A stretch of DNA of 64,000 nt from Patescibacteria group bacterium (GTDB lineage Bacteria; Patescibacteriota; Microgenomatia; JBGSIU01): assembly GCA_041742375.1 (NCBI GenBank), contig JBGSIU010000044.1, forward strand, positions 2,161-66,160. The letters run 5' to 3'. Below, piece after piece: positions 8,431 to 46,629 of the stretch (position 1 is its first letter; each line of letters begins with the position of its first letter). The position numbers and the translations under genes were made by a program. A model generated the notes under the pieces. That model searched no databases. It saw only the letters and a list, made by a program, of their open reading frames with translations, and was not told where the DNA came from.

Positions 8431-8970
8431 ATTTTAATGAAAAGCGGCAATAAAATCAAATATCTGAGAAATGAAAAAAATCGCGGGAAAGGATATTCGG
8501 TGCGACGCGGTATTAAAGTGGCAACGGGTGACGTCATGATCATGCAGGATGCGGATTTGGAATATGACCCCAACGATTATGAAAAGCTTCTAAAACCGAT
8601 TTTCGACGGGAAAGCAAATGTTGTTTTTGGCTCGCGTTTCACCGGAGAACATAACAATCTTTTCTTCACGCATTTCATCGCCAACAAATTTATCACCTTT
8701 TTAATCGACGTCTTTTTTAACACCACCTTATCCGATGTTGAAGTGGGATACAAAGTTTTTAAAAAAAGCTTGCTTGATAAAATTAATCTTCGTGAAGACC
8801 GATTTAGTTTTGAGATTGAAATCACCGCCAAAATTTTAAAACTTAAAGAAAAAATCTTTGAAGTGCCGATTTCGTATACGGGCCGTGGCTATGAAGAAGG
8901 AAAAAAAATCGGATGGAAAGATGGTCTTCAGGCTTTGTGGTGCGTTTTTAAATATCGATTTTTTGTATGA
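8287..8970 (+). CDS. GT2 glycosyltransferase (polyprenol-phosphate sugar synthase-like)
   Basis: 'ISILIPVFNEEETMMQILDKV...IIVIDDCSTDRT' and a 'QDADLEYD' DxD motif. Confidence 0.85.
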   Translation: MKISILIPVFNEEETMMQILDKVSSVNIFHIKKEIIVIDDCSTDRTAQILMKSGNKIKYLRNEKNRGKGYSVRRGIKVATGDVMIMQDADLEYDPNDYEKLLKPIFDGKANVVFGSRFTGEHNNLFFTHFIANKFITFLIDVFFNTTLSDVEVGYKVFKKSLLDKINLREDRFSFEIEITAKILKLKEKIFEVPISYTGRGYEEGKKIGWKDGLQALWCVFKYRFFV

Positions 8971-10487: not shown

Positions 10488-12046
10488 AAAAAACCAAATT
10501 TTTTCTCATAATCTTCCTCATCTTGTACTTGTCATTATTTCTGAGAATTCATGATTTTGAAAACCATGTTTATGTCTGGGGAGACAGTGCGCGCGATATT
10601 CTGACGGCGCGTGAATCTTTAAGAGTGGGAACGATTCCTTTGACGACGGCTTTTTCCTCCGCCGGCCCTTTTGTTTTCGGTCCGCAATATTATTGGCTTC
10701 TGATGGTGGTATATTTTTTTAATTTTAACTCATGGAATATTTTTTATTACTTTCTCATTATGCAGTCTCTTTTTTTTGTGATCGTGATGATGTTCATCGG
10801 CAAAGAACTTGTGGGTCGGAAATTTGCTCTTGTTTTGGGTCTTGTCACCGCCTTCTCCGGCAGACAAATAATTCGTGCAACGTATTTTTCTCAGCATTCG
10901 TTTGTTGCTCTGCCAAGCGCGCTCGCCGTGTTGTCTTTAATTAAATTTTTCCGGAAAAAAAATAATTCACACGTTTTTTGGTGTGCTTTTTGGGTTTCAA
11001 ACTCCATTCTTCTTCATTATCAAGCGCTTGGGCTTCTTGTTTTAATTTTGCCATTCATATGTGATAAGTCGCCCGTAAAAGAAAAATTTAAACGAATGGC
11101 AACTTTTGTTCTTGGTTTAATTCTTCCGGCAACGCCTTTTTTGGTGTGGGATTATCAAATGCAATTCGCCAACATAAGGAACGTCTTGGATTATGTGCTG
11201 ATCGGTCAATACCGAATTTATATTCCCAACCGGTGGACATGGCATCTTTTTAATTTTTGGCCGGAATATACCGCCGATATTTTTACCGGTAATAATATTT
11301 TCGCGGGAATTTTGCTTTATTTCGCACTTGGGGTTTTACTCATGAAATGCGGCCTCAAAAAAGTTAACCGGAAAATTATTTGGATATTTTTAATTTTTAT
11401 CTTCTATTTTTTTTATTTGAGGTTTTACCGGGGAGAGAAGTTTGAAGGTTATTTAATGTATCTCCATCCGTTTATTTTGTTCATTTTGGCCTGTGGGCTT
11501 TATTTTTTTTCAAAAGCTAAAATTCTATTCCTCGCGCTCTTTTTATTTGCCGCTTTTTCTTCCGCAAACATGCTTAAAGAATATTATGCAAATCCCAAGC
11601 CAAATCAGGAAAGTATGTTTCAGGAAATAGCTGAAAATCTGGTTAAACAATCCGGTTCAAAAAAACGTAAGTTTTCCGTGTTTGATTTTGCCATCTATGA
11701 TAGTCAAACAGAAACTTGGAGTTATTCAGAAGCTTTTTCGCTTTATCTCGACACGAAAAACATGCTTGATGAAAAAAACGGATTTAAGATTGGATTTTGC
11801 TTCAGTTTTTGTCCGAAAAATGCGGTGTTTTTGAAGGATAAAACACTTCAGGAATCGGGGCACAAGATTGTTTTGATAGATTTGGTTAAGAAAAAAAATC
11901 GCGACAAATTCCGATTAGTAAATAGGTCGCCGCACGCGGTTTATGAGGAAATGATTTTTTGGTGGGCAAATCGCCCTTTAGAATCATCTTTCAGTTTGGA
12001 TAAATTTATTTATGAACGGACAATTGGAAAATTTATAAAATCATGA
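10484..12046 (+). CDS. Polytopic membrane protein, putative GT-C-type glycosyltransferase (second of the tandem paralog pair)
   Basis: 520 aa. 'HDFENHVYVWGDSARDILTARESLRVGTIPL...SAGPFVFGPQYYWLLMVVYFF' and a C-terminal 'EEMIFWWANRPL' conserved with its neighbour. Confidence 0.55.
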   Translation: MKKTKFFLIIFLILYLSLFLRIHDFENHVYVWGDSARDILTARESLRVGTIPLTTAFSSAGPFVFGPQYYWLLMVVYFFNFNSWNIFYYFLIMQSLFFVIVMMFIGKELVGRKFALVLGLVTAFSGRQIIRATYFSQHSFVALPSALAVLSLIKFFRKKNNSHVFWCAFWVSNSILLHYQALGLLVLILPFICDKSPVKEKFKRMATFVLGLILPATPFLVWDYQMQFANIRNVLDYVLIGQYRIYIPNRWTWHLFNFWPEYTADIFTGNNIFAGILLYFALGVLLMKCGLKKVNRKIIWIFLIFIFYFFYLRFYRGEKFEGYLMYLHPFILFILACGLYFFSKAKILFLALFLFAAFSSANMLKEYYANPKPNQESMFQEIAENLVKQSGSKKRKFSVFDFAIYDSQTETWSYSEAFSLYLDTKNMLDEKNGFKIGFCFSFCPKNAVFLKDKTLQESGHKIVLIDLVKKKNRDKFRLVNRSPHAVYEEMIFWWANRPLESSFSLDKFIYERTIGKFIKS

Positions 12047-13437
12047 AAATTAAATTTAATTGGGAATATTTTATTGTTATATTTTTCATTATTATTTATG
12101 CGGTGGCGGCACTCGCAGTCTCACTTAACAGATATTGGCAATTTAACGCATTTTGGTATGATTTTGGGATCTTTGATTCAACTATTTGGCAACTTAGTCG
12201 TTTTCATTTTCCTCTTATCATTCAAAAAGCACCACCGACAGGGATAATTGTTTGGGGTGACCATTTCAATCCGAGCGCCATTTTTCTTTCGCCTCTTTAT
12301 TGGCTAACAAGCAAACAGGAAATTTTAATTGCAACACAAGCTATTTTCGTATGCTTAGGAGCAGCAGTGGCATATCTAACAGTAAAGAAAACTGTAAAGA
12401 GTTCAGTTGTTAAAATTGCATTGATTGTAAGTTATCTTGGATTTGTTGGTATGCAAAATGCGCTTTTCACAGATGTTCATAACATAGTTTTTGCAGTTCT
12501 ACCTCTAACTCTTACAATTTGGGCAATTTTTAACAAAAAATGGAATTTGTATTTTATTTTTTTACTTTTAACAATTGGTTTTCAAGAAAATCTGGCATTG
12601 ACTGGGGCAATGCTTGGAGTTTTTCTTGTCCTTTCAAGGAAGAATGTGAAAATAGGCATAATTAGTATACTTGTATGCATCTCTTATTTTTTTATTGTGA
12701 TTAAGTTTATAACTCCGTATTTTAATCACTCACCCTATGCCTATCAACCTGAACCTTTTAACAATCCTTTTGAACTTATCGCAAGATTTTTCATTCCAAG
12801 TATTAAATTGAAAACAATTGTTCTTTCATTTTTGACGTTTGGCCTGCTTCCTGCGGTTTCAATCCCGACATTGCCGCTTATAGTTGAACAATATTTTGAA
12901 AGATTTGTTTTGAATTCTGCGGCAACTCGCTGGGATTTGGGTTTCCACTATAATTCGATCCTGTCACCAATTTTTTTCTTGGGTTCGCTATCGGTGGTTA
13001 TTAAGTTTCAGAATAAACCTATTTTTTCAAAACTAATGAAATTGTGGGGGGTCACAACGATTCTAATTGTAATTTTTCTCCACAGATTCTATCTCCATGG
13101 TCCATTAATGCAGTCAACAATGCCTGCTTTTTACCAAGCGACGAAAGATACAGAATTTCTGTATAAATTCACTGATAAAATTCCAAGAGGGAAATTTCTC
13201 ATGATTCAAAATAATCTTGCCAGTCACTTTACGCATGAGAAGATGATGCTTCTTGATTCAAGGTATAATCAAATTAAGCCTGATATTATTGTGTTTGACA
13301 CGCGCTCAGGACAAAACGCGAACAATTTCTATCCGTTAGAATTTTCCCAGGTCAAAAAAATGATTTCTGCATTGGAAAAAGATAAAAACTATAAAAAAAT
13401 ATTAGTAACCAACGATCAATTCTATTTTGAAAAATAA
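12043..13437 (+). CDS. DUF2079-like polytopic membrane protein (glycosylation-associated)
   Basis: 464 aa. The 'WGDHFNPSAIFLSPLYW' motif resembles DUF2079 'GDHF' proteins. Paralog of 19275..20678. Confidence 0.55.
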   Translation: MKIKFNWEYFIVIFFIIIYAVAALAVSLNRYWQFNAFWYDFGIFDSTIWQLSRFHFPLIIQKAPPTGIIVWGDHFNPSAIFLSPLYWLTSKQEILIATQAIFVCLGAAVAYLTVKKTVKSSVVKIALIVSYLGFVGMQNALFTDVHNIVFAVLPLTLTIWAIFNKKWNLYFIFLLLTIGFQENLALTGAMLGVFLVLSRKNVKIGIISILVCISYFFIVIKFITPYFNHSPYAYQPEPFNNPFELIARFFIPSIKLKTIVLSFLTFGLLPAVSIPTLPLIVEQYFERFVLNSAATRWDLGFHYNSILSPIFFLGSLSVVIKFQNKPIFSKLMKLWGVTTILIVIFLHRFYLHGPLMQSTMPAFYQATKDTEFLYKFTDKIPRGKFLMIQNNLASHFTHEKMMLLDSRYNQIKPDIIVFDTRSGQNANNFYPLEFSQVKKMISALEKDKNYKKILVTNDQFYFEK

Positions 13438-19274: not shown

Positions 19275-20678
19275 ATGTTTAATAAAATAATCAATCACAA
19301 ATATATTATTCCGTTTCTGATTATCATCTTTTTCTCAACCTGCGACGTCATTTTGCTTCTTAACAAGTTTTGGCAAGGTGAGTTTTACGCGGTAGATAAC
19401 GTATATTTTGACACCGCCATCTGGAAAGCGTCGCGTTTTCAAGCTCCAATCGTGCAGCATTTTGCTCTTGGCCGAGTAAACATTCTGGGCGATCATTTTC
19501 ATCCGACAATTTTTCTCTTGTCTCCTCTTTATTGGTTTTCGTCTTCGCCAGCGGTGATTCTTGTCGGCATGGTGCTTGCTTATGCGGCAAGCGCGGTTAT
19601 TCTGGCCATGACCGGATACAAACTCGTGAAAAATAAATTAATCGTTAATATTCTTTTGATTTCATATTTTTTATATATCGGAACACAGAATGCGTTTCTT
19701 TATGGGTTTCATGAATTAAATTTGATGCCTCTATTTTTCTCGCTGGTGTTTTATTCTTTAATTTCCGGCAAAAATAAACTTTTCTGGATTTCAATTTCTC
19801 TTCTCCTGTTAACAAAAGAAACAATGGCTCCAGTTATGATTGGTGTTGGAATATATATATTTTTCTGGTATCCTCAAAAACGAAAAACTGCAATTTTTTC
19901 AATCGTTCTTTCTGTTGTATATTTTTTAATCGTCACCCGATTTGTTATCCCCGTTTTTTCCGGTAAATTTTTTTATCAAAATATTTCTCACCCAAATTCC
20001 GTTGGTGAAGTATTTACTCATTTTTTTAATCCTGCTGAAAAGAGAGATGTTATTTTTAAAACATTTGCTTCTTTTGGTTTCCTGCCAATTTTTAATTTGC
20101 CATTCCTGCCGATTATTCTTCAAGATTTATTAATAAGATTTTTATTTTCTCCAAATTGGGTGGTGCAATACACAATTAATTATCATTACAATATTGTTCT
20201 TGCGCCAATGATGTTTGTTTCATTTATATATATGGCGGCGAAAATTCAAACAAGAAAAATAGGAAGAATGATATCAACGATTTTTGTTTTTATCGGCTTA
20301 TTATCAAGCCTGATAATGTTTAGACAATGTCCCCTGCGGCTCGTGTCTAACCCTTTTTTCTACGAGCAAACGGCAAAAACCTTTGAAATGAGAAATTTTG
20401 TTAACAAAGTTCCCGTCCGAGGAAGGATTATGGCGCAAAATAATTTAGCATATTATTTTTCTCATACCGATGTCTTTCTTTTTGTTATGAATGAAAAAGA
20501 ATTTAATAAAATAGATCCTGACATTGTTGTTTGTGATTTGACAAAAGGACAGTTTCCAAAGAATTATTTGCCTTTGACTGAAAGAGAAATGGGATTATTT
20601 GTCAAAAAACTTACGCAAAATCATGAATACAGGTTATTATATAAAGAGAAAAGTAGATATATTTTTACCAAAAAATGA
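19275..20678 (+). CDS. DUF2079-like polytopic membrane protein (paralog of 12043..13437)
   Basis: 'ILGDHFHPTIFLLSPLYW' motif and an overall N-terminal alignment to the 12043 gene. Confidence 0.55.
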   Translation: MFNKIINHKYIIPFLIIIFFSTCDVILLLNKFWQGEFYAVDNVYFDTAIWKASRFQAPIVQHFALGRVNILGDHFHPTIFLLSPLYWFSSSPAVILVGMVLAYAASAVILAMTGYKLVKNKLIVNILLISYFLYIGTQNAFLYGFHELNLMPLFFSLVFYSLISGKNKLFWISISLLLLTKETMAPVMIGVGIYIFFWYPQKRKTAIFSIVLSVVYFLIVTRFVIPVFSGKFFYQNISHPNSVGEVFTHFFNPAEKRDVIFKTFASFGFLPIFNLPFLPIILQDLLIRFLFSPNWVVQYTINYHYNIVLAPMMFVSFIYMAAKIQTRKIGRMISTIFVFIGLLSSLIMFRQCPLRLVSNPFFYEQTAKTFEMRNFVNKVPVRGRIMAQNNLAYYFSHTDVFLFVMNEKEFNKIDPDIVVCDLTKGQFPKNYLPLTEREMGLFVKKLTQNHEYRLLYKEKSRYIFTKK

Positions 20679-21766
20679 AAAAAATAATTATTCTTGTCGA
20701 TGTTTATTTGCCATTTGTTGGGGGTGGGCAAATTTGGGTTAAGGAAATTTCAGAATATCTTGTGAAAAATAAAGATATTGCAATCGAAATCGTCACCCGA
20801 AAGCTAAGGTGGAATGGCACAATCGCGTCATCTTCAGAAAACCTGCTTGGCGGAAAATTAAAAATAACGCGGCTTGGATTTGTTTCGTCCTGGAATAATA
20901 TCTTCTCAAGGCTTGCGTTTATTGTCCAGTCATTTATTTATCTTATATTTTTGGATTTTGACCTAATAGATGTGCAGGTTTTTGTTTCCGCAATTCCCGG
21001 CAAGTTTGCGGCATTAATTAAAGGTAAGCCGATCATCCTGACGGTTCACGGTACATCCCTTGAGAAAGAAAACTGCAGTTTGCTTGAAAAAATCATTTTA
21101 ACTGGAATAAAATACGATGCCGAGATAACGGTGGCATCTAACTTTCTTAAGTTCGCGAACGTCAACTCACAAATTAAGGTTATTCATCCGGGAATAGACG
21201 CGGAAAATTTTAAATCCGGCCCGAAGCAACATAAAAAAAGTAAAATTATATTTGTCGGAAGATTGGAACCGGAAAAGGGTATAGACATTTTGAAAAAAAT
21301 CATATCTTGTTATAAACAGCAAGGGGTTGATTTTGCGATTGTTGGGGAAGGATCGCTGAAAAATGATTTGAAAAATTATATTTTCTTGAAAAATATCAAC
21401 AACGCTCATTTTCTTGGCGTTCTTTCTCAAAAAGATCTGGCAAAAGAATATGCAAGATCGAATATATTTTTAATGACCTCATACACGGAGGGATATCCGT
21501 TAACTATCATCGAGGCAATGGCTTCCGGTCTGCCGATTGTGGCATCAAACGTTGGCGACATAGGAAAAATCGTCCAAAACAGAGTGAATGGATTTCTGGT
21601 GGATGACTTTCAGGTTGGCAGTTATACTAAGCATATCGATACTTTACTGGAAAATAAAAGCATGCGGGAAATAATGGGACGCACGAATTTGAAAAAATCA
21701 AAAAACTATTCTTGGCATAAAACTGCCGCATCGGTTTATGACATTTATCAAGTTTTATTGAAATGA
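20675..21766 (+). CDS. GT4 (GT-B) glycosyltransferase
   Basis: 'SYTEGYPLTIIEAMASGLPIVASNVGD'. Confidence 0.85.
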   Translation: MKKIIILVDVYLPFVGGGQIWVKEISEYLVKNKDIAIEIVTRKLRWNGTIASSSENLLGGKLKITRLGFVSSWNNIFSRLAFIVQSFIYLIFLDFDLIDVQVFVSAIPGKFAALIKGKPIILTVHGTSLEKENCSLLEKIILTGIKYDAEITVASNFLKFANVNSQIKVIHPGIDAENFKSGPKQHKKSKIIFVGRLEPEKGIDILKKIISCYKQQGVDFAIVGEGSLKNDLKNYIFLKNINNAHFLGVLSQKDLAKEYARSNIFLMTSYTEGYPLTIIEAMASGLPIVASNVGDIGKIVQNRVNGFLVDDFQVGSYTKHIDTLLENKSMREIMGRTNLKKSKNYSWHKTAASVYDIYQVLLK

Positions 21767-23184
21767 AAAAAACGTTTGCGATTTTTATCTATTTAATACT
21801 TTTTTCTTTGCTTCCGGTCATATTCTTCTGGCACATTGTGGAAGACGATTTTATGGACACTATTGCCACTGCCGATGGTCTATTTAAGCTTCATGAGTTG
21901 TGTTATGCGTATTATCATAACTTTGCGGGGGTGGTTGGGATGACCGGTTTCTCTCTGCGCCCGCCCCTGCCAGCGATGAGCTTGGCATTATTTTTTAACC
22001 TTTTTGGGCACAAAACCGTTGCTATTTTTTTCGCATATCTGCTGCCGAGAATTTTAGTGATACCTTTGGTTTTTTTGGTGGCCGAGGAAATAATGAGTAA
22101 ATTTAAAGCTTATCTGGCCGCAACGATAACCGGTTTTTTCTTATTTTTCCAAACATATGCACTGTCGACTTTGAAAGCGGATTCTTTTGTTGTCTTGTTT
22201 ACGCTGGCGAGTCTTTATTTTTATCTTTGCTGGAAAAGAAAAAAAGCGAATTTATATTTATGTTTAAGCGGACTATTTTTGGCTTTCAATCTCCTTTCAA
22301 AAGAAACGGCCATGCCTTTGTCGCTCGTTCTATTTGGTGCAGTGGCGTTTGATGTCGTGCGGCAGAAAAAAATAACCCGATTAATATATTTTCTGATTCC
22401 CGGTGTGATTTTTTATGGATCGTATTTCCTAGTTAATTTTATGTTAACCAAACAAGCGTCTCCGAGTTTTTTCGCATCAAAACTCTACGTTTCGACTTTT
22501 TTCGGCAGTTTCAAAACCTACTTTATGACCGTTTTTTATTATGCCGGTGTTAATTTTAATTATGGGAAACTGTATTCCTTGCAAAGCCTGATTGTTTTTA
22601 TATTTCTGTCTGCGGGAGTTTTATTTTTAATAAAAAGTAAAAAATACATGTTGGTACTCGTTCCTTTCGGATTAATTTTTTTTATTTGTTTTTTAAATTA
22701 CAAAAATATTCAATCCGGTGTTGTTGGTAACAGAGAAATACTTCATCGGATATCGCCGGTCGTGCCCTTTTTGTCGATTTATCTTTTTTGTGGAGCAGAA
22801 TATCTCGCAAAAATAATGCACCGGTTTTTAAAAAAGATTTCCCGGAGAAATTTAGCCATTTGTTTTTCGTTATTCATTTCTTTTACTTTCATATTTAATT
22901 ATTTCCGTTCTCCCTTTGCGCTTGATTATACGGATGAAGAATTTTATGTTAACGCACAGACGATGTTAACCAACAAGCGCGAAATCCGGCCAAGCGATTT
23001 TACATTGAAAAGAAACATCTGCGTTGTTATAAGTTATCCTCAAAAAGAATTCATGGTTAGGAATTTGAGAAAATACCGAGTGAGTGCTTTCCCAAAAAAT
23101 TATAAGGAAATAATTATTTTTTTCTGGGCGATTCCGGCGATTTTTCTGTTATTTTTTGAGAGAAAATATAAAAAATATGATTGA
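21763..23184 (+). CDS. GT-C glycosyltransferase, PMT_2/ArnT-like
   Basis: 473 aa, polytopic. An N-terminal TM followed by the acidic loop 'HIVEDDFMDT'. Confidence 0.6.
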   Translation: MKKTFAIFIYLILFSLLPVIFFWHIVEDDFMDTIATADGLFKLHELCYAYYHNFAGVVGMTGFSLRPPLPAMSLALFFNLFGHKTVAIFFAYLLPRILVIPLVFLVAEEIMSKFKAYLAATITGFFLFFQTYALSTLKADSFVVLFTLASLYFYLCWKRKKANLYLCLSGLFLAFNLLSKETAMPLSLVLFGAVAFDVVRQKKITRLIYFLIPGVIFYGSYFLVNFMLTKQASPSFFASKLYVSTFFGSFKTYFMTVFYYAGVNFNYGKLYSLQSLIVFIFLSAGVLFLIKSKKYMLVLVPFGLIFFICFLNYKNIQSGVVGNREILHRISPVVPFLSIYLFCGAEYLAKIMHRFLKKISRRNLAICFSLFISFTFIFNYFRSPFALDYTDEEFYVNAQTMLTNKREIRPSDFTLKRNICVVISYPQKEFMVRNLRKYRVSAFPKNYKEIIIFFWAIPAIFLLFFERKYKKYD

Positions 23185-26808: not shown

Positions 26809-28275
26809 ATGAAATTTCTCCAAAAGAAAAACTTGGCGATCATCTGTTTAATTGCGATTATTATCTTTTCAATAATTATTCGATTTTGGTTTTTCTGGGA
26901 CGGCAATTTTTCCGGTGATGAATCTGCACACGCAATGAAAGCAATAAGCGTTGGCATAGGCATTAAAGATTTAATTACGATTAAAAATACGCAAATCGCC
27001 CTTCATAATGTTTTTGATCCAATTATGTCCCATGCTCATCCTCCCCTTGAATTTTTAATCGTTGTTCCTTTTGTGATCTTTCAACCGAGAGAGTTTTTTG
27101 TTAGGTTGCCGTTTATTCTTGTTAATTTGGTGACTTTAATTTTAGGCTGTGTATTAGTTGGAAAAAAACAGAACAAGATCAAAACAATATCGTTTTTGAT
27201 ATTTTTCGGGACGTCTCTGTATGTTGTTTGGTGGAGTCAAACTGCAATGTACCAGAGTTTGGCAATTTCAGTCGGATTTTTTATTTCCCTTTCTTTTATT
27301 AAACTGTCAAAGCAACCTACGAAAAAGATATTATTCACGAATTCTGTTTTACTGGGAATTGGCTTAATGGTGTTTTCTGATTTTTTTCTGTATATCCCAG
27401 TTTTTCTGTTTATTTTATATGAAAAACGATCGTATTTCTCAAAAAATGACATGCTTTTCGCGTTAACAATTTTTATTTTGATTTGTGGGCCGTTTTATTT
27501 AACCTGGATTATTTACGGTTTTTTGCCGGGTACGGAAAAAATCGGCTTTAACTATTTTATTCATAATAAATTCAGTGGGCAGATAAATATTTTTCGGAAT
27601 ACCGAAAGTTACGCAAGGAATTTTTTTCTTTTTCCTGGAGTTTTTGTTCTCTTTCCCGCAGTCATCTATTCTTTGTTTAAAAAGACGAGAGAATCGAAAT
27701 ATCTAATACCTGTTTTTTTATCGTATTATATTATTTATGTTTTAAAACCAACCGCCCCATATTTTTATTTTTGTGCGGTTTTTGGACCTTTATGTTTAAT
27801 CGCGATTTCAGGAATATCGAAAATGAAAAAAAGACACGCATTAATTTTATTGATACTGACTTTATTAGTTAATATTTTCACTCTTTCGCCTATTTTTAAT
27901 AGACAATTTAATGGTTTAATTTTTTTCGATACGAATCCGAAAGATCGAGTTAAATATTTTGGAGATATCATCAAAAGATGTACTTTGCAAGATAATGAAA
28001 CCTATCTAAGTACCTCCGATCCTTGGCGAACAAATTATTATTTCGGCAGGCCTAGTCTATATGAATCCGAGAACTTTACAGGTGTCAAAAAAAAACTCAA
28101 GTTATTTTTATCCAAAAAAGATAATTATATTAACTTAACAGTAAAATTCATACATTTCCAAAATGGATTATTGGATGACAATTTGCAAAGCGAGTTAGAG
28201 AAAAAAGCATTAAAGATTCTATTTTTTGGCAATGAAAAACTGCTATTATTTCGCGACTGTAATATTCAAAAATGA
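26809..28275 (+). CDS. GT-C glycosyltransferase, PMT_2/ArnT-like
   Basis: 488 aa, polytopic, with 'RFWFFWDGNFSGDESAHAMKA' after TM1. Its N-terminal region is similar to the gene at 551. Confidence 0.65.
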   Translation: MKFLQKKNLAIICLIAIIIFSIIIRFWFFWDGNFSGDESAHAMKAISVGIGIKDLITIKNTQIALHNVFDPIMSHAHPPLEFLIVVPFVIFQPREFFVRLPFILVNLVTLILGCVLVGKKQNKIKTISFLIFFGTSLYVVWWSQTAMYQSLAISVGFFISLSFIKLSKQPTKKILFTNSVLLGIGLMVFSDFFLYIPVFLFILYEKRSYFSKNDMLFALTIFILICGPFYLTWIIYGFLPGTEKIGFNYFIHNKFSGQINIFRNTESYARNFFLFPGVFVLFPAVIYSLFKKTRESKYLIPVFLSYYIIYVLKPTAPYFYFCAVFGPLCLIAISGISKMKKRHALILLILTLLVNIFTLSPIFNRQFNGLIFFDTNPKDRVKYFGDIIKRCTLQDNETYLSTSDPWRTNYYFGRPSLYESENFTGVKKKLKLFLSKKDNYINLTVKFIHFQNGLLDDNLQSELEKKALKILFFGNEKLLLFRDCNIQK

Positions 28276-37571: not shown

Positions 37572-38198
37572 ATGAAAACTAAACTGCTTATCTTTCCATA
37601 TAACGGCAATGGTTTGGAAGCCTTGGGATGCTTAGACGGAAATTACGAATTTATCGGGTTTATTGATGATGAATCAACTAAGCAGGGAAAGAAAAAAGAG
37701 GGATTCACGGTTTTTTCCCGTGAAGTACTGCAAAAATATCGAGAGGCAAAATTGCTGGCGGTTCCCGGTAGTCCGACGACATATTTAAATCGAAAAAAAG
37801 TGATTGCTAGTTTAAAAATACCCCAAACACGATTTGCCACGGTTATTCATAAAAACGCGTACATATCTCCTTTGGTAAAAATTGGGTTTAATGTTTTAAT
37901 TATGGCGGGGGTTGTTCTGACGAGCAATGCCATTATCGGGAATCATGTTTGTATTTTGCCAAACAGCGTTATCCATCATGATGTTGTGCTGGCTGATTAT
38001 ATACTTGTGGGATCACAGGTGGTCATTGCCGGATATGTAAAAATACACGATAATTGTTATATTGGCAGTCAAAGTTCTCTTATCAATCAGATAGAGATTG
38101 GTAAAAATTCTCTTGTTGGAATTGGATCGAACGTTATCAAATCTTTTCCTCCTAATTCAAGAATTGTTGGGAATCCTGCCCGATTAATAAATAATTAA
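37572..38198 (+). CDS. NeuD/PglD-family sugar N-acetyltransferase (hexapeptide)
   Basis: N-terminal Rossmann-like 'LLIFPYNGNGLEALGCLD...FIGFIDDE' and a C-terminal hexapeptide beta-helix. Confidence 0.75.
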   Translation: MKTKLLIFPYNGNGLEALGCLDGNYEFIGFIDDESTKQGKKKEGFTVFSREVLQKYREAKLLAVPGSPTTYLNRKKVIASLKIPQTRFATVIHKNAYISPLVKIGFNVLIMAGVVLTSNAIIGNHVCILPNSVIHHDVVLADYILVGSQVVIAGYVKIHDNCYIGSQSSLINQIEIGKNSLVGIGSNVIKSFPPNSRIVGNPARLINN

Positions 38199-38225: not shown

Positions 38226-39155
38226 ATGGAACACAATATTAGCATAATAATCCCCATATATAATGAAGAGAAAGGTATCGATCGGCTTGTTAAAAATCTC
38301 AATGCATATTTTCAAAAGCACGCGAACTTAGAACCAGAAGTTATTTTTGTTGACGATGGATCAAGTGATAATTCGGTTAAAGCGATAAAAAAACTGAAAC
38401 ACGTAAATTATTCGGCAAAGCTTATCAAACTCACAAGAAATTACGGATCCCACTTGGCAATTCGTGCGGGGATACAAGTTGCCGCCGCGTCTGTGGTGAC
38501 GTTCATTTCAAGTGACCTTCAGGATCCGCTTTCATTAATCGGCAACATGTATGCTGAAATGAAAGAGGGCAATGATTTAATTTGGGCAAAAAGAAGAAAA
38601 ATCGAAAACAAATTTATCGCCAATTTTTCGACAAAACTTTATGCGAAATTAATGAAACTTTTTGTATTTTGTGATTTTCCCGAAAATGGATTCGATGTGG
38701 TTATGTTTAGCGATAAAATCAAAAATGAACTTAATCGAAATATTGAAGCAAACTCATCAATTTTTTTACAAATTATGAATATGGGTTTTCATAGCTCAAC
38801 AATTACATATGATAAAAAAGCGCGACAGATCGGCGGCTCAAAATGGAATTTCTCAAAAAAAATCAAATTATTAATCGATTCATTCGTGTCATTTTCTTAT
38901 GCGCCGATTAGGTTTGTGAGTGTGATGGGGCTAGTTCTTTCGACAGTGGGTTTTATCTGGGCGATATATATTTCCTTGAGGGCAATCATGTCAGGGAATT
39001 TAAATCCGGGATGGCCATCTTTAATTGCGATTTTAACCATTGGTTTTGGCGTGACCAATCTTTCGCTCGGGATTATCGCCGAATATTTATGGCGAACCCT
39101 AGATATTTCAAGAAAAAGAAGCGCCTTCTTAATCGATGAAATGATAAATCTATGA
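38226..39155 (+). CDS. GT2 polyprenol-phosphate glycosyltransferase with C-terminal TM helices (ArnC/GtrB/DPM1-like)
   Basis: 'ISIIIPIYNEEKGIDRLV...VIFVDDGSSDNS' and two C-terminal TM helices 'GLVLSTVGFIWAIYI...LIAILTIGFGVTNLSLGIIAEY'. Confidence 0.8.
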   Translation: MEHNISIIIPIYNEEKGIDRLVKNLNAYFQKHANLEPEVIFVDDGSSDNSVKAIKKLKHVNYSAKLIKLTRNYGSHLAIRAGIQVAAASVVTFISSDLQDPLSLIGNMYAEMKEGNDLIWAKRRKIENKFIANFSTKLYAKLMKLFVFCDFPENGFDVVMFSDKIKNELNRNIEANSSIFLQIMNMGFHSSTITYDKKARQIGGSKWNFSKKIKLLIDSFVSFSYAPIRFVSVMGLVLSTVGFIWAIYISLRAIMSGNLNPGWPSLIAILTIGFGVTNLSLGIIAEYLWRTLDISRKRSAFLIDEMINL

Positions 39156-40147
39156 AAAAACAAAAAATATTAATCACAGGTGGGGCCGGTTTTATCGGCT
39201 CTCACCTTGTCGATGAGCTTCTTGCAAAAAATTACATTGTGATCTGTTTAGATAATTTAGTAAATGGCTCTTTGAGTAATTTAAAAACTGCCCTGACTAA
39301 CCCAAATTTTCAATTTATCAAAGGAGATATTTTAAAAGAGCAGGACGCCTTAAAATCAACAAAAATAGTAGATATCGTGTTTCATTTGGCATGCCTTGGC
39401 GTTCGCCATTCGATCCATAGTCCGCTTGCGAATCATCGCGTGAATGCCGAAGGAACACTACGGATGCTTCAGGCGGCAAGAGTAAATAAAATAAAAAAAT
39501 TTTTTTATATCTCGAGTTCTGAAATCTATGGCGACGTGAAGCATTTCCCGATCGCGGAAGATTATGTCCCGGCACCAACTACGATATACGGCGCCAGTAA
39601 GCTTGCCGGCGAACATTATTCGATTGCATATAATAAATGTTACGGTTTAAAGACGACGATTCTGAGAATTTTTAATAACTATGGTCCGCGTGCCCATTAT
39701 GAAAGTGATGCCGGAGAAATTATTCCAAGAACAATTGTGATGGCCATATATAATAAACCACCAACGGTTTTTGGTGACGGGAAAACCACCCGTGATTATT
39801 TTTATGTGAGAGATACGGTGCGGGCGCTGGCTGACTTAATTAATTATCCCAATCTAACCGGTGAAATAATCAATATTGGCGCGGGGCTGGAAACGAAAAT
39901 AATCGATATTGTTAGAAAGATATTAAACTTGATGGATAAACAAAATCTTGAAATCATCCATGCCGGCAACCGCCCGGCTGATTTACCGAGATTGTGGGTT
40001 AATGCCAATAAATTTTATGAAATGACGCGTTTTGCACCGGCTTATGATTTCGAACAAGGCTTAAAAGAAACAATTGTTTATTATAAAAAATTATCTCAAG
40101 GAAAATTATTATATAAAAAAATTAAATTAAGAAACTGGGAGAAATAA
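39152..40147 (+). CDS. NAD-dependent nucleotide-sugar epimerase/dehydratase
   Basis: 'ILITGGAGFIGSHLVDELL', 'YGASKLAGE'. Confidence 0.85.
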   Translation: MKKQKILITGGAGFIGSHLVDELLAKNYIVICLDNLVNGSLSNLKTALTNPNFQFIKGDILKEQDALKSTKIVDIVFHLACLGVRHSIHSPLANHRVNAEGTLRMLQAARVNKIKKFFYISSSEIYGDVKHFPIAEDYVPAPTTIYGASKLAGEHYSIAYNKCYGLKTTILRIFNNYGPRAHYESDAGEIIPRTIVMAIYNKPPTVFGDGKTTRDYFYVRDTVRALADLINYPNLTGEIINIGAGLETKIIDIVRKILNLMDKQNLEIIHAGNRPADLPRLWVNANKFYEMTRFAPAYDFEQGLKETIVYYKKLSQGKLLYKKIKLRNWEK

Positions 40148-40148
40148 T

Positions 40149-41903
40149 ATGATTCCTGTCGCAAAACCATATTTGACAAAAACGGAGGCAGAAACGGCGG
40201 CGGATGTGATTCTGTCGGGATGGGTAACGCAAGGATCTAAAGTTGAAGAATTTGAAAAGAAATTCGCGAGCTTTGTCGGATCAAAATATGCCGTTTGTGT
40301 TTCAAACTGCACCGCCGCTCTCCATTTGTCGCTCATCGTTTCAGGTGTCCGCGCGGGTGATGAGATCATCTGTCCTTCGATGAGTTTTATTGCAACGGCA
40401 AATTCTATTCGTCACGCGGGAGGAGTTCCGGTTTTCGCAGATTGTGAAAAAGAAACATACAATATCGACCCAATAAGCGCAGAAAAATTAATCACCAAGA
40501 GAACAAAAGGTATTTTAATCGTCCATCAGATGGGTTGGCCGGCCGATATTGATGCCTTTAAAAAAATTTGCCTGAAGCATAGTCTCGTTCTAATAGAAGA
40601 TGCGGCCTGTGCCGTCGGCTCAGAATATAAAGGTAAAAAAATAGGTTCACATTCTGATTTGGTTTGTTTTTCATTCCATCCGAGAAAAGTAATCACGACT
40701 GGCGACGGGGGCATGATCACCACTTCAAACAAAGATTATTATGAGCGGCTAAAAAGATTAAGGCAACATGGAATGAGTGTGAATGACAGAGAGCGTCATT
40801 TTTCAAACAGGATTATTAATGAAGATTATCTTGAACTCGGTTATAACTATAGAATGACAGATATTCAGGCGGCCGTAGGCATTAAGCAACTTGAAAAGAT
40901 TAATTACTTGATTAAAGAGAGAACCAAATTGGCCGAGTTTTACAATAAAGCATTTGCAAAAACCGAAAAAATTATTTTGCCAAAAATTGATCCAAAAAAT
41001 AAACCAAACTTTCAGTCGTATCCGATCTATTTTGCCGGAATCAATGAAAACAAAAGAGATGAAATTATGCAAAAACTACTTGATGTGGGAATCAGTACTC
41101 GGCGCGGAATAATGCTTGCTCATAAAACATCCGCATATTGTAAATATAAACTTCGTGGCAAACTGTCTGCTTCCGAAGATTTATCATCAAAAAGCATTCT
41201 TTTGCCGCTTTATAACGGTTTTACAAAAAATGAAGCAAGCTTTGTTATTAAAAATTTGAAAAAAACGCTTGAGATAAACGAAACGGATAGATTTCAAAGT
41301 CTAAAAGGAAGAATGCCCCAAATTTTAGAACGACCTTTTCTTTATAATTTGATTCAAGATATTTTAGGTTATGGGTCAGAAAAACTTATTTTAAAAAAGC
41401 TAAAAGAAATATTTAGATTCGTCTCGCCAGATGAGAATATTCTTGATGTTGGGTGCGGACCAAGCTCCCGACTGTGGAAGCTTGGGTATAAACCTTTTGG
41501 TCTTGATATTTCAAAATCATATGTGTCAGAGTTTAATAAAACATGCGACAAAGCAAAACTTGGATCTGCCGACACCCTTCCTTTTAAAAAACAAGAATTT
41601 AAAATAGTTTGGTCGTTTGGTTTACTTCATCATTTGGAAGATAACGTTGCTCGAAAATCTATTTTAGAAATGATAAGGGTGTGTAAAAAAAATGGAGAGG
41701 TATTAATTTTTGACGCAGTTTTACCTGTTTCTTTTTGGTTTTATCCTTTTGCTTCTATAATTCGAAAATTTGACAGAGGATGCTATATGCGAACAGAAGC
41801 AGATTTTGACAGTATTCTTCCCCAAAAATCCAAATGGGAAAAAGAAAGGTATATTTATGCCAAAACGGGCCTTGAGCTTTTGATTCTGACTTATAGAAAA
41901 TAA
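40149..41903 (+). CDS. Fusion protein: N-terminal DegT-family aminotransferase, C-terminal class I SAM methyltransferase
   Basis: Residues ~1-370 are DegT-like. Residues ~400-584 contain 'ILDVGCGPSSRLWKLGYKPFGLDIS...GLLHHLED'. Confidence 0.75.
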   Translation: MIPVAKPYLTKTEAETAADVILSGWVTQGSKVEEFEKKFASFVGSKYAVCVSNCTAALHLSLIVSGVRAGDEIICPSMSFIATANSIRHAGGVPVFADCEKETYNIDPISAEKLITKRTKGILIVHQMGWPADIDAFKKICLKHSLVLIEDAACAVGSEYKGKKIGSHSDLVCFSFHPRKVITTGDGGMITTSNKDYYERLKRLRQHGMSVNDRERHFSNRIINEDYLELGYNYRMTDIQAAVGIKQLEKINYLIKERTKLAEFYNKAFAKTEKIILPKIDPKNKPNFQSYPIYFAGINENKRDEIMQKLLDVGISTRRGIMLAHKTSAYCKYKLRGKLSASEDLSSKSILLPLYNGFTKNEASFVIKNLKKTLEINETDRFQSLKGRMPQILERPFLYNLIQDILGYGSEKLILKKLKEIFRFVSPDENILDVGCGPSSRLWKLGYKPFGLDISKSYVSEFNKTCDKAKLGSADTLPFKKQEFKIVWSFGLLHHLEDNVARKSILEMIRVCKKNGEVLIFDAVLPVSFWFYPFASIIRKFDRGCYMRTEADFDSILPQKSKWEKERYIYAKTGLELLILTYRK

Positions 41904-44858: not shown

Positions 44859-45935
44859 ATGCTTGAAATAGTTGAAAAAAAACATCGTAATTTCAATAAA
44901 ATGTGGAATTCCTATCTCCAAACCAATCCGACGGTTTCCTGGCGATATTTAAATGACTGGATTGTCTACCAAAAAGAGTATTCAAAATCGTTTCAAAAAG
45001 ACTTATCGTTTTTGATTAAAGAAGGACAGAATGTTTTAGCAATTTGCCCTTTGCTGATAGAGAATAATAATTCACATTTTCAAGCTTCATCAGGGGATGA
45101 TTATATGCCGTCGCCCGATGTTTCAATGAAATATGACAAAAAATTCAGAAAAAAAATAGAAAATTTTTGTTTTTACCAAATAGATCATTATGCGAAAACA
45201 AAAAAAATTAAAAAAATAAAGATGATGACAGATCCTTGTTCACAGAATTGGGATTTTAATCATTTAACGCAATACGGTTTTCTTGATTCGTCAATCGCCA
45301 CGGAAATTATAGATTTACGTAATTCAGTTTCTGAGATAAAAAGTTCCTTTAGGTCAAGTTATAAATCAATTATTAATCAATCATCAAAAATATATCAAAT
45401 TAAAATAATCGATTGTAAAAATCCGGAATATCAAATTCATGAAGAATATAGAAAATTACACCATAAATCAGCCGGCAGAATTACCAGAAATATAAAAACT
45501 TTTGATCTGCAGTTTGAATTGTTAAAAAAAGACAACGCGATGCTTATAGGTTTAATGTTTGAAAAGAAATTTATTGCCTTCAGCTATTTTTTCCATCATA
45601 ATAGAAATATTTATTATGCATCGTCTTCCGACAACCCCAATTTTAAAGTAAAAGTACCAATTGAACACCTAATCATTTGGTCGGCGATTGAATATTACGT
45701 AAACCGAAAGTTTTCAAAAATGGAGATTGGTTGGCAGCAATTCGGTCCCCAACTTTTTGATTTTCCATCGAACAAAGATATTAATATTTCCTTTTTTAAG
45801 CGCGGATTTGGAGGATCAACAGTTTCTCTATTCCGAGGGGTTAAATATTACGAAACAGGCTTGATGAAAAGAGAAATTAATGAGCAATCAGAAAAAATAA
45901 TTCAGTTATATGAAAAAACAAAACGTAAAAAATAG
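44859..45935 (+). CDS. Hypothetical protein, possibly a FemAB-like/acyl-CoA N-acyltransferase fold
   Basis: 358 aa, soluble, no strong motif recognised. Assigned by context only. Confidence 0.3.
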   Translation: MLEIVEKKHRNFNKMWNSYLQTNPTVSWRYLNDWIVYQKEYSKSFQKDLSFLIKEGQNVLAICPLLIENNNSHFQASSGDDYMPSPDVSMKYDKKFRKKIENFCFYQIDHYAKTKKIKKIKMMTDPCSQNWDFNHLTQYGFLDSSIATEIIDLRNSVSEIKSSFRSSYKSIINQSSKIYQIKIIDCKNPEYQIHEEYRKLHHKSAGRITRNIKTFDLQFELLKKDNAMLIGLMFEKKFIAFSYFFHHNRNIYYASSSDNPNFKVKVPIEHLIIWSAIEYYVNRKFSKMEIGWQQFGPQLFDFPSNKDINISFFKRGFGGSTVSLFRGVKYYETGLMKREINEQSEKIIQLYEKTKRKK

Positions 45936-46629
45936 TCCGGAAAAGTGGTACGAAAATTCATATCAGGAAATGGGTGATTCCGCTCAAAGGAAATACCCAA
46001 ATGAAGAATTGATCAGATTTCTAGGTCGGGATTTTTTTGGAACAAACAAAAAAGTCAGGCAAAAAATTAAAATGCTTGAAGTTGGTTGTGGAATGGGAGC
46101 AAATTTATGGCCGATTGCTCGCGAGGGATTCAGCACTTACGGGATTGACATTTCAGAAAAATCAATTAAATTAGCGAGAAAATATCTTATGTCTTGGGGA
46201 GTAAATGCCGATTTAAGAAAAGCGAACATGGTCAAACTTCCATACAAACAGAATTTCTTTGAGGTTGTCTTTGACGTATTTTCGTCTTATTGTTTAACAA
46301 CGAAAGAATACGAAATTTTTTTACATGAAGTCAGAAGAGTTCTTAAAAAAGGAGGGAAATTTTTTTCCTACACTCCTTCTGTAACGTCACAAGCATTTAT
46401 CAATTATTTGCCATCTGAAAAAATTGATGAGTTTACAATAAATGGTATTAAAAGAAAAACCTCCCCTTTCTATGGAAATGATTATCCATGTCGTTTCACC
46501 AATCAATTTTATCTTGCAAAAAAGCTTAAAGAAAATAATTTTAAAATAGAATATTTAGAAACAGTGTCCAGAAGTTATAATTCTCAATCGGAGAATTTTG
46601 ATTTTCTAGTTGTTGTTGCAATTAAATGA
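45910..46629 (+). CDS. Class I SAM-dependent methyltransferase
   Basis: 'MLEVGCGMGANLWPIAREGFSTYGIDISEKSIKLARK'. Confidence 0.75.
   Translation: MKKQNVKNSPEKWYENSYQEMGDSAQRKYPNEELIRFLGRDFFGTNKKVRQKIKMLEVGCGMGANLWPIAREGFSTYGIDISEKSIKLARKYLMSWGVNADLRKANMVKLPYKQNFFEVVFDVFSSYCLTTKEYEIFLHEVRRVLKKGGKFFSYTPSVTSQAFINYLPSEKIDEFTINGIKRKTSPFYGNDYPCRFTNQFYLAKKLKENNFKIEYLETVSRSYNSQSENFDFLVVVAIK

Follow-up and report, generated by a model that had tools for sequence, protein, structure and literature searches.

How far can a single reading frame that joins a sugar aminotransferase of the DegT family to a SAM-dependent methyltransferase be trusted, and which sugar would such a protein help to make? This question is raised by an ORF at 40149..41903 (+ strand) of the window, i.e., the whole 64-kb stretch of DNA that was analysed. 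The earlier note had described a single 584-aa ORF with a complete aminotransferase followed by a methyltransferase domain, and this description is borne out by the ORF listing and by Pfam: the frame starts with ATG, has zero internal stops, encodes 584 aa followed by the stop codon, and contains both Pfam domains, with ILDVGCGPSS at aa 431-440 and LLHHLED at aa 492-498. The Pfam scores of both domains exceed the curated thresholds and are far beyond chance.

The two enzyme domains and their rarity in one protein

The N-terminal half (aa 1-372; 40149..41264, +) is a DegT/DnrJ/EryC1 PLP-dependent sugar aminotransferase domain, matching PF01041 (DegT_DnrJ_EryC1) at aa 9-370 over profile positions 3-359 of 360 (E 4.8e-110, 368.6 bits, cutoff 19.8). 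Lys180 in the sequence FSFHPRK (codon at 40686..40688, +) is the predicted PLP Schiff-base lysine, aligning with the FSFFGNK lysine of perosamine synthase 3bn1; the same position is Ala in 3dr4, where it was mutated. Asp151 (IEDAA) corresponds to the Asp for the PLP pyridine nitrogen, and both D151 and K180 are invariant in an alignment of concatenated DegT–methyltransferase pairs (A5). By its aligned Schiff-base lysine, this half is assigned as an aminotransferase rather than as a dehydratase of the ColD/E1 type, which carries a His. The best NCBIfam models, i.e., PseC (308.6 bits, cutoff 423.5), LegC-like, ArnB (260 bits, cutoff 631) and WecE, each score under their equivalog cutoffs, and no named equivalog model among PseC, LegC, ArnB, WecE and perosamine synthase reached its cutoff for the DegT half. 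Among solved structures, perosamine synthase (3bn1/3dr4) and ArnB (1mdo) come nearest. The nearest enzymes are all C-4 aminotransferases, and the DegT half is probably one as well.

The C-terminal half (aa 396-584; 41334..41900, +) is a class I SAM-dependent methyltransferase domain, which scores above the cutoffs of both PF08241 (Methyltransf_11; aa 432-520, E 4.2e-11, 43.8 bits, cutoff 21.2) and PF13649 (aa 431-516, 43.3 bits, cutoff 27). A closer look at its SAM-binding motifs, as suggested earlier, found all family motifs present. The glycine-rich SAM-binding loop of motif I, LDVGCGP (aa 432-438; 41442..41462, +), has family-invariant D, G, C, G and P residues, an acidic residue for the ribose hydroxyls ends β2, and the domain has the seven-strand α/β fold. 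His494-His495 in WSFGLLHHL (41628..41633, +), the candidate general base, and Asp522 in FDAVLP (41712..41714, +) are likewise family-invariant. The window protein keeps 17/17 of the family-invariant residues, and the idea that this half is a decaying remnant was rejected on that ground.

The small uncharacterised family to which this domain belongs was delimited by a search of 1.84 billion representatives, yielding 209 representatives at E ≤ 1e-30, nearly all of about 200 aa and all from uncultured organisms. Two segments are specific to the family, i.e., an N-terminal P..Y.LSQ helix and a C-terminal DAVLP...DRG...R...E segment. A second methyltransferase in the window, at 45910, was considered as a paralog and rejected, having only the SAM core in common and lacking the HH and C-terminal motifs. 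The 1.84-billion-representative search brought up GT2–methyltransferase fusions but did not return the window protein itself, fused proteins presumably being hidden inside DegT clusters, and it is thus unfit for counting DegT–methyltransferase fusions.

Fusions were counted with a profile of the concatenated DegT–methyltransferase pair (alignment A5), which was built to favour them; a word-index search with the C-terminal part only missed both fused proteins and was not used for counts. Among 5.8 billion protein clusters, both halves were found in one protein only in P0001, the exact window fusion, which is recorded both in NCBI and in Logan, and in P0002, with 1026 and 1011 bits, respectively; the next match, at 722 bits, is a stand-alone protein. 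The view that such a fusion is uncommon is upheld by this count, which includes, besides the window protein itself, an independent fused homolog. P0002, from another metagenome (JGI 3300075153, on a contig of 3,213 bp), comprises 586 aa, is 68% identical over the full length, has an SDR upstream as in the window, and keeps 16/17 of the family-invariant residues in its methyltransferase half. Its DNA was not found in a metagenome scan with two fused C-termini, whose over-specific patterns gave one unrelated weak match. Literature searches found no published DegT–methyltransferase fusion or ArnC-plus-methyltransferase system.

The gene module and the methylated position

In the nearest relatives, the two halves are encoded by adjacent genes, mostly with an ATGA stop/start overlap. 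One such locus, L001 (Logan ERR12076137), contains P0003, a DegT protein with 80% identity to the window half (92% over aa 1-250), whose gene overlaps at an ATGA with the next one, encoding a methyltransferase of 51% identity (E 9e-63). The same overlap occurs in L002 and L003, and L004 has a 15-nt gap. Across these split pairs, L011 included, the DegT proteins are 64-80% and the methyltransferases 42-51% identical to the window halves. The split, translationally coupled genes give two polypeptides, whereas the window has one frame through the junction; NeuD-type acetyltransferase, ArnC-like GT2 and SDR neighbours are common to both. The two marks of a Rosetta-stone fusion are thus seen here, i.e., split adjacent orthologs in relatives and recurrence of the fused form in P0002, and such a fusion points to four genes conserved as a module that makes a methylated amino-deoxysugar.

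In the window, one of the neighbours is a NeuD/PglB/VioB-family sugar N-acetyltransferase (37572..38198, +; TIGR03570, 160.6 bits, cutoff 160.8), 91% identical to its ortholog in L001. It is followed by an ArnC/PgfS-like GT2, a predicted polyprenyl-phosphate glycosyltransferase (38226..39155, +; PF00535), which aligns end-to-end with PgfS (149.6 bits) and ArnC (125 bits, cutoff 529), both below cutoff. An NDP-hexose 4,6-dehydratase-like SDR (39152..40147, +; Epimerase/GDP_Man_Dehyd), a conserved partner in related loci, scores 211.7 bits with the dTDP-glucose 4,6-dehydratase model, below its cutoff of 365, and 184.6 with a LegB-like model; its stop codon lies 1 nt upstream of the fusion ATG. 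The conserved module accordingly comprises the 4,6-dehydratase-like SDR, DegT, the ArnC-like GT2 and the methyltransferase, often with a NeuD/VioB-type N-acetyltransferase, which roughly one half of the related modules contain and which is absent from the fetched DNA of the other half. DegT accompanies the family methyltransferase in 21/22 loci, together with the ArnC-like GT2 in 20/22, and the methyltransferase is always the last module gene. The window also encodes three PMT_2 proteins with 7-9 TM-like segments, i.e., an ArnT-like GT-C membrane protein (21763..23184, +; PF13231) and others at 5391-6851 and 8967-10487, as well as two DUF2079 proteins. The PMT_2 proteins are candidate users of a polyprenyl-phosphate sugar and may be tied to the module. 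In L010 the gene immediately after the methyltransferase encodes a PMT_2 GT-C protein, and in five loci the methyltransferase has polytopic membrane proteins as neighbours.

The reading adopted here, held with slightly better than even confidence, is a Rosetta-stone fusion of a coupled 4-aminotransferase and O-methyltransferase at the end of a module for a lipid-linked amino-deoxysugar. For this module we infer the substrates, the order of steps, the methylated position and the lipid-linked destination as follows. The SDR (39152) would make an NDP-4-keto-6-deoxyhexose, which the DegT half would aminate at C-4; the acetyltransferase (37572) would then N-acetylate the amine and likely acylates the 4-amino group in this manner. 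The methyltransferase half would, most likely, place a methyl on a sugar hydroxyl via a RebM-like His-His/Asp general-base site, giving an anthrose- or 2-O-methyl-Vio4NAc-like sugar, which the ArnC-like GT2 (38226) would attach to polyprenyl phosphate, making it available to a membrane transferase of the GT-C type.

The choice of a hydroxyl rests on RebM (3bus) and AtmM (6uv6), the top PDB profile matches of the methyltransferase (E 4e-19 and 8e-17, respectively). In this alignment LHHM falls on LHHL and iaDfv on ifDav, so that the family-invariant histidines and Asp522 correspond to RebM His140/His141 and Asp166; the catalytic residues of RebM are reportedly H140/H141/D166, as Singh et al. 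are said to have found in 2008. RebM and AtmM are indolocarbazole sugar 4'-O-methyltransferases, and on these alignments a 4-acetamido-4,6-dideoxyhexose is more likely methylated on oxygen than on nitrogen. The match spans positions 28-141 of the 202-position profile with an identity of about 20%, i.e., the SAM-binding core up to β5. Differences are also evident: RebM and AtmM have about 270 aa, methylate a sugar that has already been transferred to an aromatic aglycone, and are without the P..Y.LSQ helix and the DAVLP...DRG...R...E segment of the window family, whose C-terminal, substrate-binding third (DRG...R...E) is without a characterised counterpart.

Alternatively, the methyltransferase may N-methylate the fresh 4-amino group. 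The fusion would then channel the keto-sugar to a product with an N-methylamino or N,N-dimethylamino group, and the methylation, being irreversible, would pull an unfavourable transamination forward. This possibility is tentative and on balance unlikely, although several observations are consistent with it. In the window, P0002, L001, L002, L004, L011, L015 and L017, the methyltransferase is either fused to DegT or directly and translationally coupled with it; the two co-occur in 21/22 loci, and the modules of L004, L010, L015 and L024 have no NeuD-type acetyltransferase in view; with about half of the modules being of this kind in the fetched DNA, there is room for N-methylation in part of them. 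The amine N-methyltransferases PfPMT and PmtA are among the fold neighbours (TM 0.62-0.65), and the near-invariant Tyr of the N-terminal helix and the His after β4 resemble the PfPMT Tyr19/His132 dyad, which is presumably their equivalent (mutants of it are among the fold matches). In phosphoethanolamine N-methyltransferase, the presumably equivalent His is the base, an H132A mutant being among the fold matches. The fold searches are flat, with the N-methyltransferases PfPMT, PmtA and DesVI scoring nearly the same as O-methyltransferases, which counts against the O-methylation reading. No sequence homology to N-methyltransferases of the TylM1/DesVI type is detectable, however. TylM1 and DesVI (3bxo), NDP-amino-sugar N,N-dimethyltransferases, are the enzyme type that N-methylation implies; both are class I SAM enzymes that act on a DegT-made amino group and are encoded nearby in deoxysugar clusters.

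N-methylation also enters a broader and rather doubtful proposal, namely a phylum-spanning Arn-like system of uncultured bacteria, composed of a 4,6-dehydratase, DegT, the methyltransferase, an ArnC-like GT2 and a GT-C, in which the methyltransferase would N-methylate the nascent 4-amino group, trap the transamination product, and give a permanently cationic N-methylamino-6-deoxyhexose destined via polyprenyl phosphate for lipid A, LPS or surface proteins. If true, the charge of the envelope would be modified by a chemistry of a new type, with the DegT–methyltransferase fusion as the kinetically coupled core of the system.

The earlier suggestion that the fusion channels a keto-sugar to an N-methylamino sugar thus holds in part. 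A covalent fusion of an aminating with a methylating enzyme is present, but N-methylation is less likely than O-methylation, with RebM/AtmM as nearest characterised matches and no detectable relation to TylM1/DesVI, and a dedicated channel is explained less well than a consequence of gene order. Other fusions within the module join GT2 to the methyltransferase (P0199, P0210, L020) or DegT to GT2 (L022). Since the methyltransferase joins up with the gene in front of it, whichever that is, and since GT2–methyltransferase and DegT–GT2 fusions also exist, the fusion mirrors gene order more than a dedicated amination–methylation channel. As gene fusions go it is ordinary, and no new principle is involved.

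The junction between the two domains

The boundary between aminotransferase and linker coincides with an A7 homopolymer (41259..41265, +), at which a change of one base in either direction brings back a stop codon: A6 gives a 375-aa ORF in the DegT frame and A8 one of 374 aa. The fused or split state hence hangs on one base, the run being placed exactly at the domain boundary. On the preferred O-methylation reading, a 1-nt change at the stop/start junction, now A7, would have merged two adjacent, translationally coupled genes. The linker (aa 373-395; 41265..41333, +) derives from the DegT tail and from what was the N-terminal extension of the methyltransferase when that still stood alone; P0002 has a linker of equal length, and the N-terminus of the L001 methyltransferase can be aligned with it. 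Structure prediction, which the earlier note had proposed for the linker, gave a full-length pTM of 0.63 and pLDDT below 50 for aa 379-391, and thus a predicted disordered segment. Two methyltransferase domains would be tethered to an obligate DegT dimer by a flexible stretch some 15-20 residues long, and such a tether would fix 1:1 stoichiometry and proximity rather than form a rigid channel.

An internal ATG at codon 389 (41313..41315, +), where P0002 has Ile, would start a stand-alone methyltransferase of 196 aa and is possibly the vestigial start codon of that gene. Reading of the window sequence upstream of codon 389 revealed no ATG, GTG or TTG in the linker frame. An SD-like AAAGGAAGA upstream of codon 389 was considered as a sign of an internal start and set aside, because SD-like motifs occur in only 3/38 cluster genes.

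The ORF could be an artefact in which a miscall of one base in the A7 tract (41259-41265) merged two truly separate genes in the assembly, as would fit the canonical stand-alone lengths obtained from A6 or A8 (DegT, 375/374 aa) and from codon 389 (methyltransferase, 196 aa), and the split state of every other close homolog. However, an independent assembly (Logan run SRR28170473, 12.7-kb contig L006) agrees with the window at 100% identity across 3,755 bp, and P0002, from another sample, is also fused with the same linker length and no Met at the codon 389 position. From the would-be stop to codon 389 there are 16 codons without a start codon, and these align with the P0002 linker and with the N-terminal extensions of the stand-alone methyltransferases L001/P0121, conserved Phe included. 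Nor is the tract suspicious by itself, with A/T runs of at least 7 being ubiquitous here (203 in the 64-kb window, one per ~315 bp). An artefact is accordingly judged improbable, and the DegT–methyltransferase fusion in the window is rare and probably real. Phase variation classically affects the methylation of surface glycans. In a slip-strand switch, the length of the A7 tract would toggle between the fused protein and a lone aminotransferase, the methyltransferase then being made at a lower level or not at all, and surface-sugar methylation would vary in phase. A tract exactly at the boundary, with both ±1 frames stopping within 1-4 codons, would suit such a switch; but seven A are short for efficient slippage, the AT-rich window has one such run per ~315 bp, and both assemblies at hand have A7, leaving this explanation barely credible.

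Comparison with known sugar pathways

The Arn pathway, which provides L-Ara4N for lipid A, comprises ArnB, ArnA, ArnC, ArnE/F and ArnT, with ArnA as a precedent for fused steps. The window module would follow the same logic, i.e., DegT amination, N-acylation, an ArnC-type GT2 acting on undecaprenyl phosphate and a GT-C outside the membrane, and the DegT half has an ArnB-like loop insertion. The ArnB and ArnC models, however, reach 260 of 631 and 125 of 529 bits, respectively. The window SDR is 4,6-dehydratase-like, whereas that of Arn is a UDP-GlcA decarboxylase, and the module acetylates, whereas Arn formylates and has no methyltransferase. If both N-methylation and delivery to the envelope on undecaprenyl phosphate were true, the Arn-type paradigm of resistance and decoration would be extended.

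As a fusion, this is a modest finding. It ties a small and entirely uncharacterised family of methyltransferases, whose roughly 200 representative clusters all stem from uncultured bacteria, to the pathway of a sugar 4-aminotransferase and an ArnC-like GT, and the single polypeptide is handy for testing the chemistry in vitro.

A closer parallel for the product is found in Mimivirus, in which the UDP-Vio4NAc pathway consists of the dehydratase R141, the aminotransferase L136, the N-acetyltransferase–GT fusion L142 and the predicted methyltransferase R132 (PMC9614988). L142 demonstrates that consecutive pathway steps do fuse (PMC9614988). A viral fold search with the window methyltransferase for an R132-like relative returned generic methyltransferases only, with no specific giant-virus similarity. 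Mimivirus 2OMeVio4NAc and Bacillus anthracis anthrose are natural O-methylated 4-acylamino-4,6-dideoxyhexoses (PMC9614988). Their enzyme set is that of the window module, i.e., a 4,6-dehydratase, a DegT aminotransferase, an N-acyltransferase and a SAM methyltransferase, and their product is a 2-O-methylated 4-acylamino-4,6-dideoxyglucose. In the favoured case of O-methylation, the module would provide another route to anthrose-like sugars, with no general principle altered; the Mimivirus and anthrose sugars are polymerised directly, whereas the window sugar would pass through an ArnC-like polyprenyl-phosphate step.

The fused protein and its two halves

The earlier note had described one open reading frame at 40149-41903 (+) that joins a complete sugar aminotransferase to a methyltransferase. 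The ORF list gives a single ATG-started frame of 584 aa with no internal stops, which contains the sequence strings quoted in that note; the observation is right in its coordinates and far beyond chance. The aminotransferase is indeed complete, with the Pfam domain DegT_DnrJ_EryC1 covering aa 9-370 (profile positions 3-359 of 360, E 4.8e-110), and this half (hereafter DegT) has the membership features of PF01041. The methyltransferase domain lies at aa 431-520, where Methyltransf_11 (43.8 bits) and Methyltransf_25 (43.3 bits) both exceed their gathering scores, and the C-terminal half (MT) carries the defining features of class I SAM methyltransferases. The SAM-binding motif left to closer alignment is present as motif I, LDVGCGP at aa 432-438, invariant in the family alignment.

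The DegT half aligns end to end with perosamine synthase (3bn1/3dr4, E 7e-66) and with ArnB (1mdo). Lys180, within FSFHPRK, occupies the Schiff-base lysine position, at which 3dr4 has Ala, and the EDAA aspartate is retained; this half is therefore predicted to be a transaminase, and a ColD-type dehydratase is ruled out by the same two residues. The top NCBIfam models, i.e., PseC, LegC-like, ArnB and WecE, are C-4 aminotransferases without exception, each scoring below its equivalog cutoff. Since none of the named aminotransferase equivalogs among the NCBIfam models reached its cutoff, no exact substrate is assigned.

The MT half belongs to a compact family, the METHYLTRANSFERASE family, for which an HMM search run exhaustively over 1.84 billion representatives recovered no more than 209 at E<=1e-30; these are almost all ~200 aa long, and every member is from an uncultured organism. 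Besides motif I, its invariant residues (full-length numbering) are D453 of motif II, H494 and H495, E507, D522 and P526 (FDAVLP), D542 and G544 (DRG), R567 and E576. In P0002, the second fused protein, the otherwise invariant LDVGCGP reads as ILDDGCGP, placing a charged Asp instead of Val in the SAM-binding strand, either through a sequencing error or as a tolerated change. The cluster that holds the fusion also encodes a stand-alone class I methyltransferase of 239 aa (45910-46629), which shares with the fused domain only the SAM-binding core (hhalign, 27% identity over 93 columns). In that comparison the 239-aa protein has neither the HH motif nor the C-terminal motifs of the MT family; it would thus belong to another family and act on another target.

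Rarity, junction and origin of the fusion

The exact 584-aa protein (P0001) is recorded in both NCBI and Logan, and a Logan contig from an independent assembler (run SRR28170473) matches the window with 100% identity across 3,755 bp. P0002 (586 aa, JGI metagenome 3300075153) carries both Pfam domains, shows 68% full-length identity to P0001, follows the same kind of 4,6-dehydratase-like short-chain enzyme (SDR) as in the window, and has a linker of equal length with several residues in common. All others among the 120 best homologs are stand-alone aminotransferases of ~376 aa. A profile built from the two real fusions and conceptual concatenations of split DegT/MT pairs was searched against 5.8 billion clusters, and both halves were matched by P0001 (1026 bits) and P0002 (1011 bits) alone, the third-ranked match being a stand-alone protein at 722 bits. 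The architecture is therefore rare in this lineage, and the fusion that the earlier note called uncommon is so within the lineage that the profile covers. No earlier description of a DegT-MT fusion or of the MT family was found in the searchable literature; what is new is the domain fusion, the enzyme kinds themselves being already known.

The closest stand-alone aminotransferase is P0003, with an identity of 80% across the whole protein and 92% within aa 1-250. L001 (Logan ERR12076137) encodes it in the gene order of the window: NeuD-type acetyltransferase, glycosyltransferase (GT2), SDR, DegT. There, a separate MT gene follows, its ATG overlapping the DegT stop (TCATGA) and its product 51% identical to the window C-terminal half (E 9e-63). 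L002 and L003 have an ATGA overlap at the same junction, and L004 has a 15-nt spacer. The window linker (aa 373-395) can be aligned to the tail of DegT followed by the N-terminal extension of the L001 MT, suggesting that making the fusion required no new sequence. An A7 homopolymer (41259-41265) lies exactly at the aminotransferase/linker boundary. With A6, the DegT frame stops at 375 aa, and with A8 at 374 aa; the next ATG after the would-be stop is codon 389 (41313), from which an MT of 196 aa would be read, these being the canonical stand-alone lengths. Fused and split states thus differ by one base.

A one-base change at this junction would provide a natural mechanism for the fusion, and the run could also be a slippage site. 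A miscall of the A7 run could have joined two separate genes, the only error route to the fusion; however, the NCBI and Logan assemblies agree, P0002 is also fused and lacks a Met where codon 389 would fall, the 16 codons 5' of codon 389 hold no start codon and align with the P0002 linker and the N-terminal extension of stand-alone MTs (conserved Phe included), and an A7 is unremarkable among the 203 A/T runs of >=7 in this AT-rich window. The fusion is very probably real.

The fused gene is a mosaic when 40149-41903 is compared with L001 4536-6295 and P0002. Over residues 1-250, identity is 92% with L001 and 79% with P0002; over residues 251-372 it is ~51-55% with either; and over the MT half it is 70% with P0002 but 48% with L001. 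This pattern suggests recombination within the gene, with a breakpoint near residue 250. The neighbours are also unevenly similar to L001 (NeuD-type 91%, GT2 85%, SDR 64%).

The conserved module and its surroundings

MT contexts were collected from the encoding contigs and by scanning 185,579 species genomes, and were annotated by BLAST against window proteins and by Pfam. The scan gave 29 MT loci, MAGs throughout, from Pseudomonadota, Desulfobacterota, Acidobacteriota, Omnitrophota, Verrucomicrobiota and Chloroflexota. In 20 of the 22 distinct loci, MT stands with a 4,6-dehydratase-like SDR, DegT and an ArnC-like GT2, and a NeuD/VioB-type acetyltransferase (AcT) is a frequent extra member. 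The window counterparts are a NeuD/PglB/VioB family protein (37572-38198; 160.6 bits against a cutoff of 160.8), a GT2 that aligns end to end with PgfS and ArnC (38226-39155) and a dTDP-glucose 4,6-dehydratase-like SDR (39152-40147). The order is GT2-SDR-DegT-MT in the window, L001, L002, L004, L011 and L015, and SDR-DegT-(AcT)-GT2-MT in L007-L010, L012, L014 and L018-L024. MT is the last gene in every case and, where fused, is joined to whichever gene precedes it: DegT in the window and P0002, GT2 in L020 (4906-6513, 535 aa), P0199 (403 aa) and P0210 (435 aa). L022 has a DegT-GT2 fusion (3908-5986, 692 aa). These varied pairings are therefore good evidence that DegT, GT2 and MT act in one pathway, and they give amination and methylation no special status as a coupled pair. 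The fusion provides a functional link and a handle for experiments; to a specialist it would come as no surprise.

P0295 is a tandem DegT-DegT protein of 783 aa. In several loci the neighbour of MT is a polytopic membrane protein (646-770 aa), which in L010 has a PMT_2 domain. Between GT2 and SDR, L002 (1520-3877) and L004 (1550-3897) encode three further proteins: a small EamA/ArnE-like one of 126-129 aa in the membrane, a carbon-nitrogen amidase (CN_hydrolase), and one of 385 aa without a Pfam match. All three are absent from the window; by analogy with ArnE/F and ArnD, these could include a flippase and a de-N-acylase. The exception to the otherwise constant context is L005 (5201-6615; ENA ERZ28763718, a 4.07-Mb contig), where MT has no adjoining DegT and instead overlaps a WbmS-like gene (PF22537) at that gene's end.

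Taken as a whole, the window forms a single, very large glycan locus with its genes in one direction. Some 38 tightly packed plus-strand genes at 25729-63121 form a glycan and nonulosonic-acid locus, with NeuB (48029, 54665), CMP-sugar-type cytidylyltransferase (42760, 49582), four DegT (33836, 36471, 40149, 59273), PseB-like (32823), B12-radical-SAM (53109), HisF/HisH-like amidotransferase (50299/51181), ATP-grasp (56792), FemAB-like (44859), class-III aminotransferase (43545), PIG-L (46610), formyltransferase (47341) and Capsule_synth (60382) genes. At least 10 polytopic membrane proteins of 460-565 aa cluster at 551-28275, an unusually rich array of putative lipid-linked-sugar transferases. 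Upstream of the fusion, they include three PMT_2 (ArnT-like GT-C) proteins (5391-6851, 8967-10487, 21763-23184) and two DUF2079 proteins (12043-13437, 19275-20678); those at 551-2008, 3740-5437, 10484-12046, 26809-28275 and, on the minus strand, 6781-8430 have no Pfam match. Of 38 genes starting between 25729 and 61802, only 3 are preceded by a Shine-Dalgarno-like motif, the start regions being A/T-rich. Window GC is ~35%, and the nearest DegT homologs are mostly from Bacteroidota; taken together, these features hint at a source resembling Bacteroidota.

Proposed pathway and comparison with known systems

In the proposed pathway, the SDR would convert an NDP-hexose into its 4-keto-6-deoxy form, the DegT half would aminate C-4, the acetyltransferase would N-acetylate the new amine, the MT half would add a methyl group, GT2 would transfer the sugar to polyprenyl phosphate and a GT-C enzyme would pass it to the final acceptor, with acetylation, methylation and transfer to the lipid listed here in a provisional order. 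The earlier note had proposed conversion of a keto-sugar to an N-methylamino sugar. Its amination half is supported (Lys180, C-4 models), whereas N-methylation is disfavoured by the best structural relatives and the N-acetyltransferase. By a clear margin, the best solved relatives of the MT family profile are RebM (3bus, E 4e-19, 71.9 bits) and AtmM (6uv6, E 8e-17), both indolocarbazole sugar O-methyltransferases, and phosphoethanolamine/phosphatidylethanolamine N-methyltransferases score 22-41 bits. TylM1/DesVI are not among the 60 solved-structure matches listed for the profile, nor do they appear at E<=1 in a single-sequence search. Counted in the alignment, RebM His140/His141 correspond to the invariant H494/H495 and RebM Asp166 to the invariant D522; these RebM residues are reportedly its proposed general acid/base residues. 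The amine would be taken up by N-acetylation in the window module and in about half of its relatives, which encode the N-acetyltransferase. The same enzyme set yields 2-O-methylated 4-acylamino-4,6-dideoxyglucose in 2OMeVio4NAc of Mimivirus and in anthrose, the Mimivirus methyltransferase R132 being predicted only (PMC9614988). On balance, O-methylation by the MT half is slightly favoured, N-methylation is rather unlikely, and some chance is left to another reaction.

The channelling suggested in the earlier note was considered on a full-length model, which has two confident domains. Linker aa 379-391 have pLDDT <50 and the overall pTM is 0.63, and therefore no confident inter-domain geometry is predicted; two fused sequences are too few to give a co-evolution signal. 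The most defensible reading is that the linker would be a flexible tether, holding the two activities close together and in fixed stoichiometry on a DegT dimer, equivalent in effect to the ATGA translational coupling of the split form.

Compared with known systems, the MT half is not detectably related, by sequence, to TylM1/DesVI. The window module may work like the Arn pathway, but its components fall below the ArnB and ArnC equivalog cutoffs. The MT half probably works like the RebM/AtmM O-methyltransferases, of which it is a candidate member.
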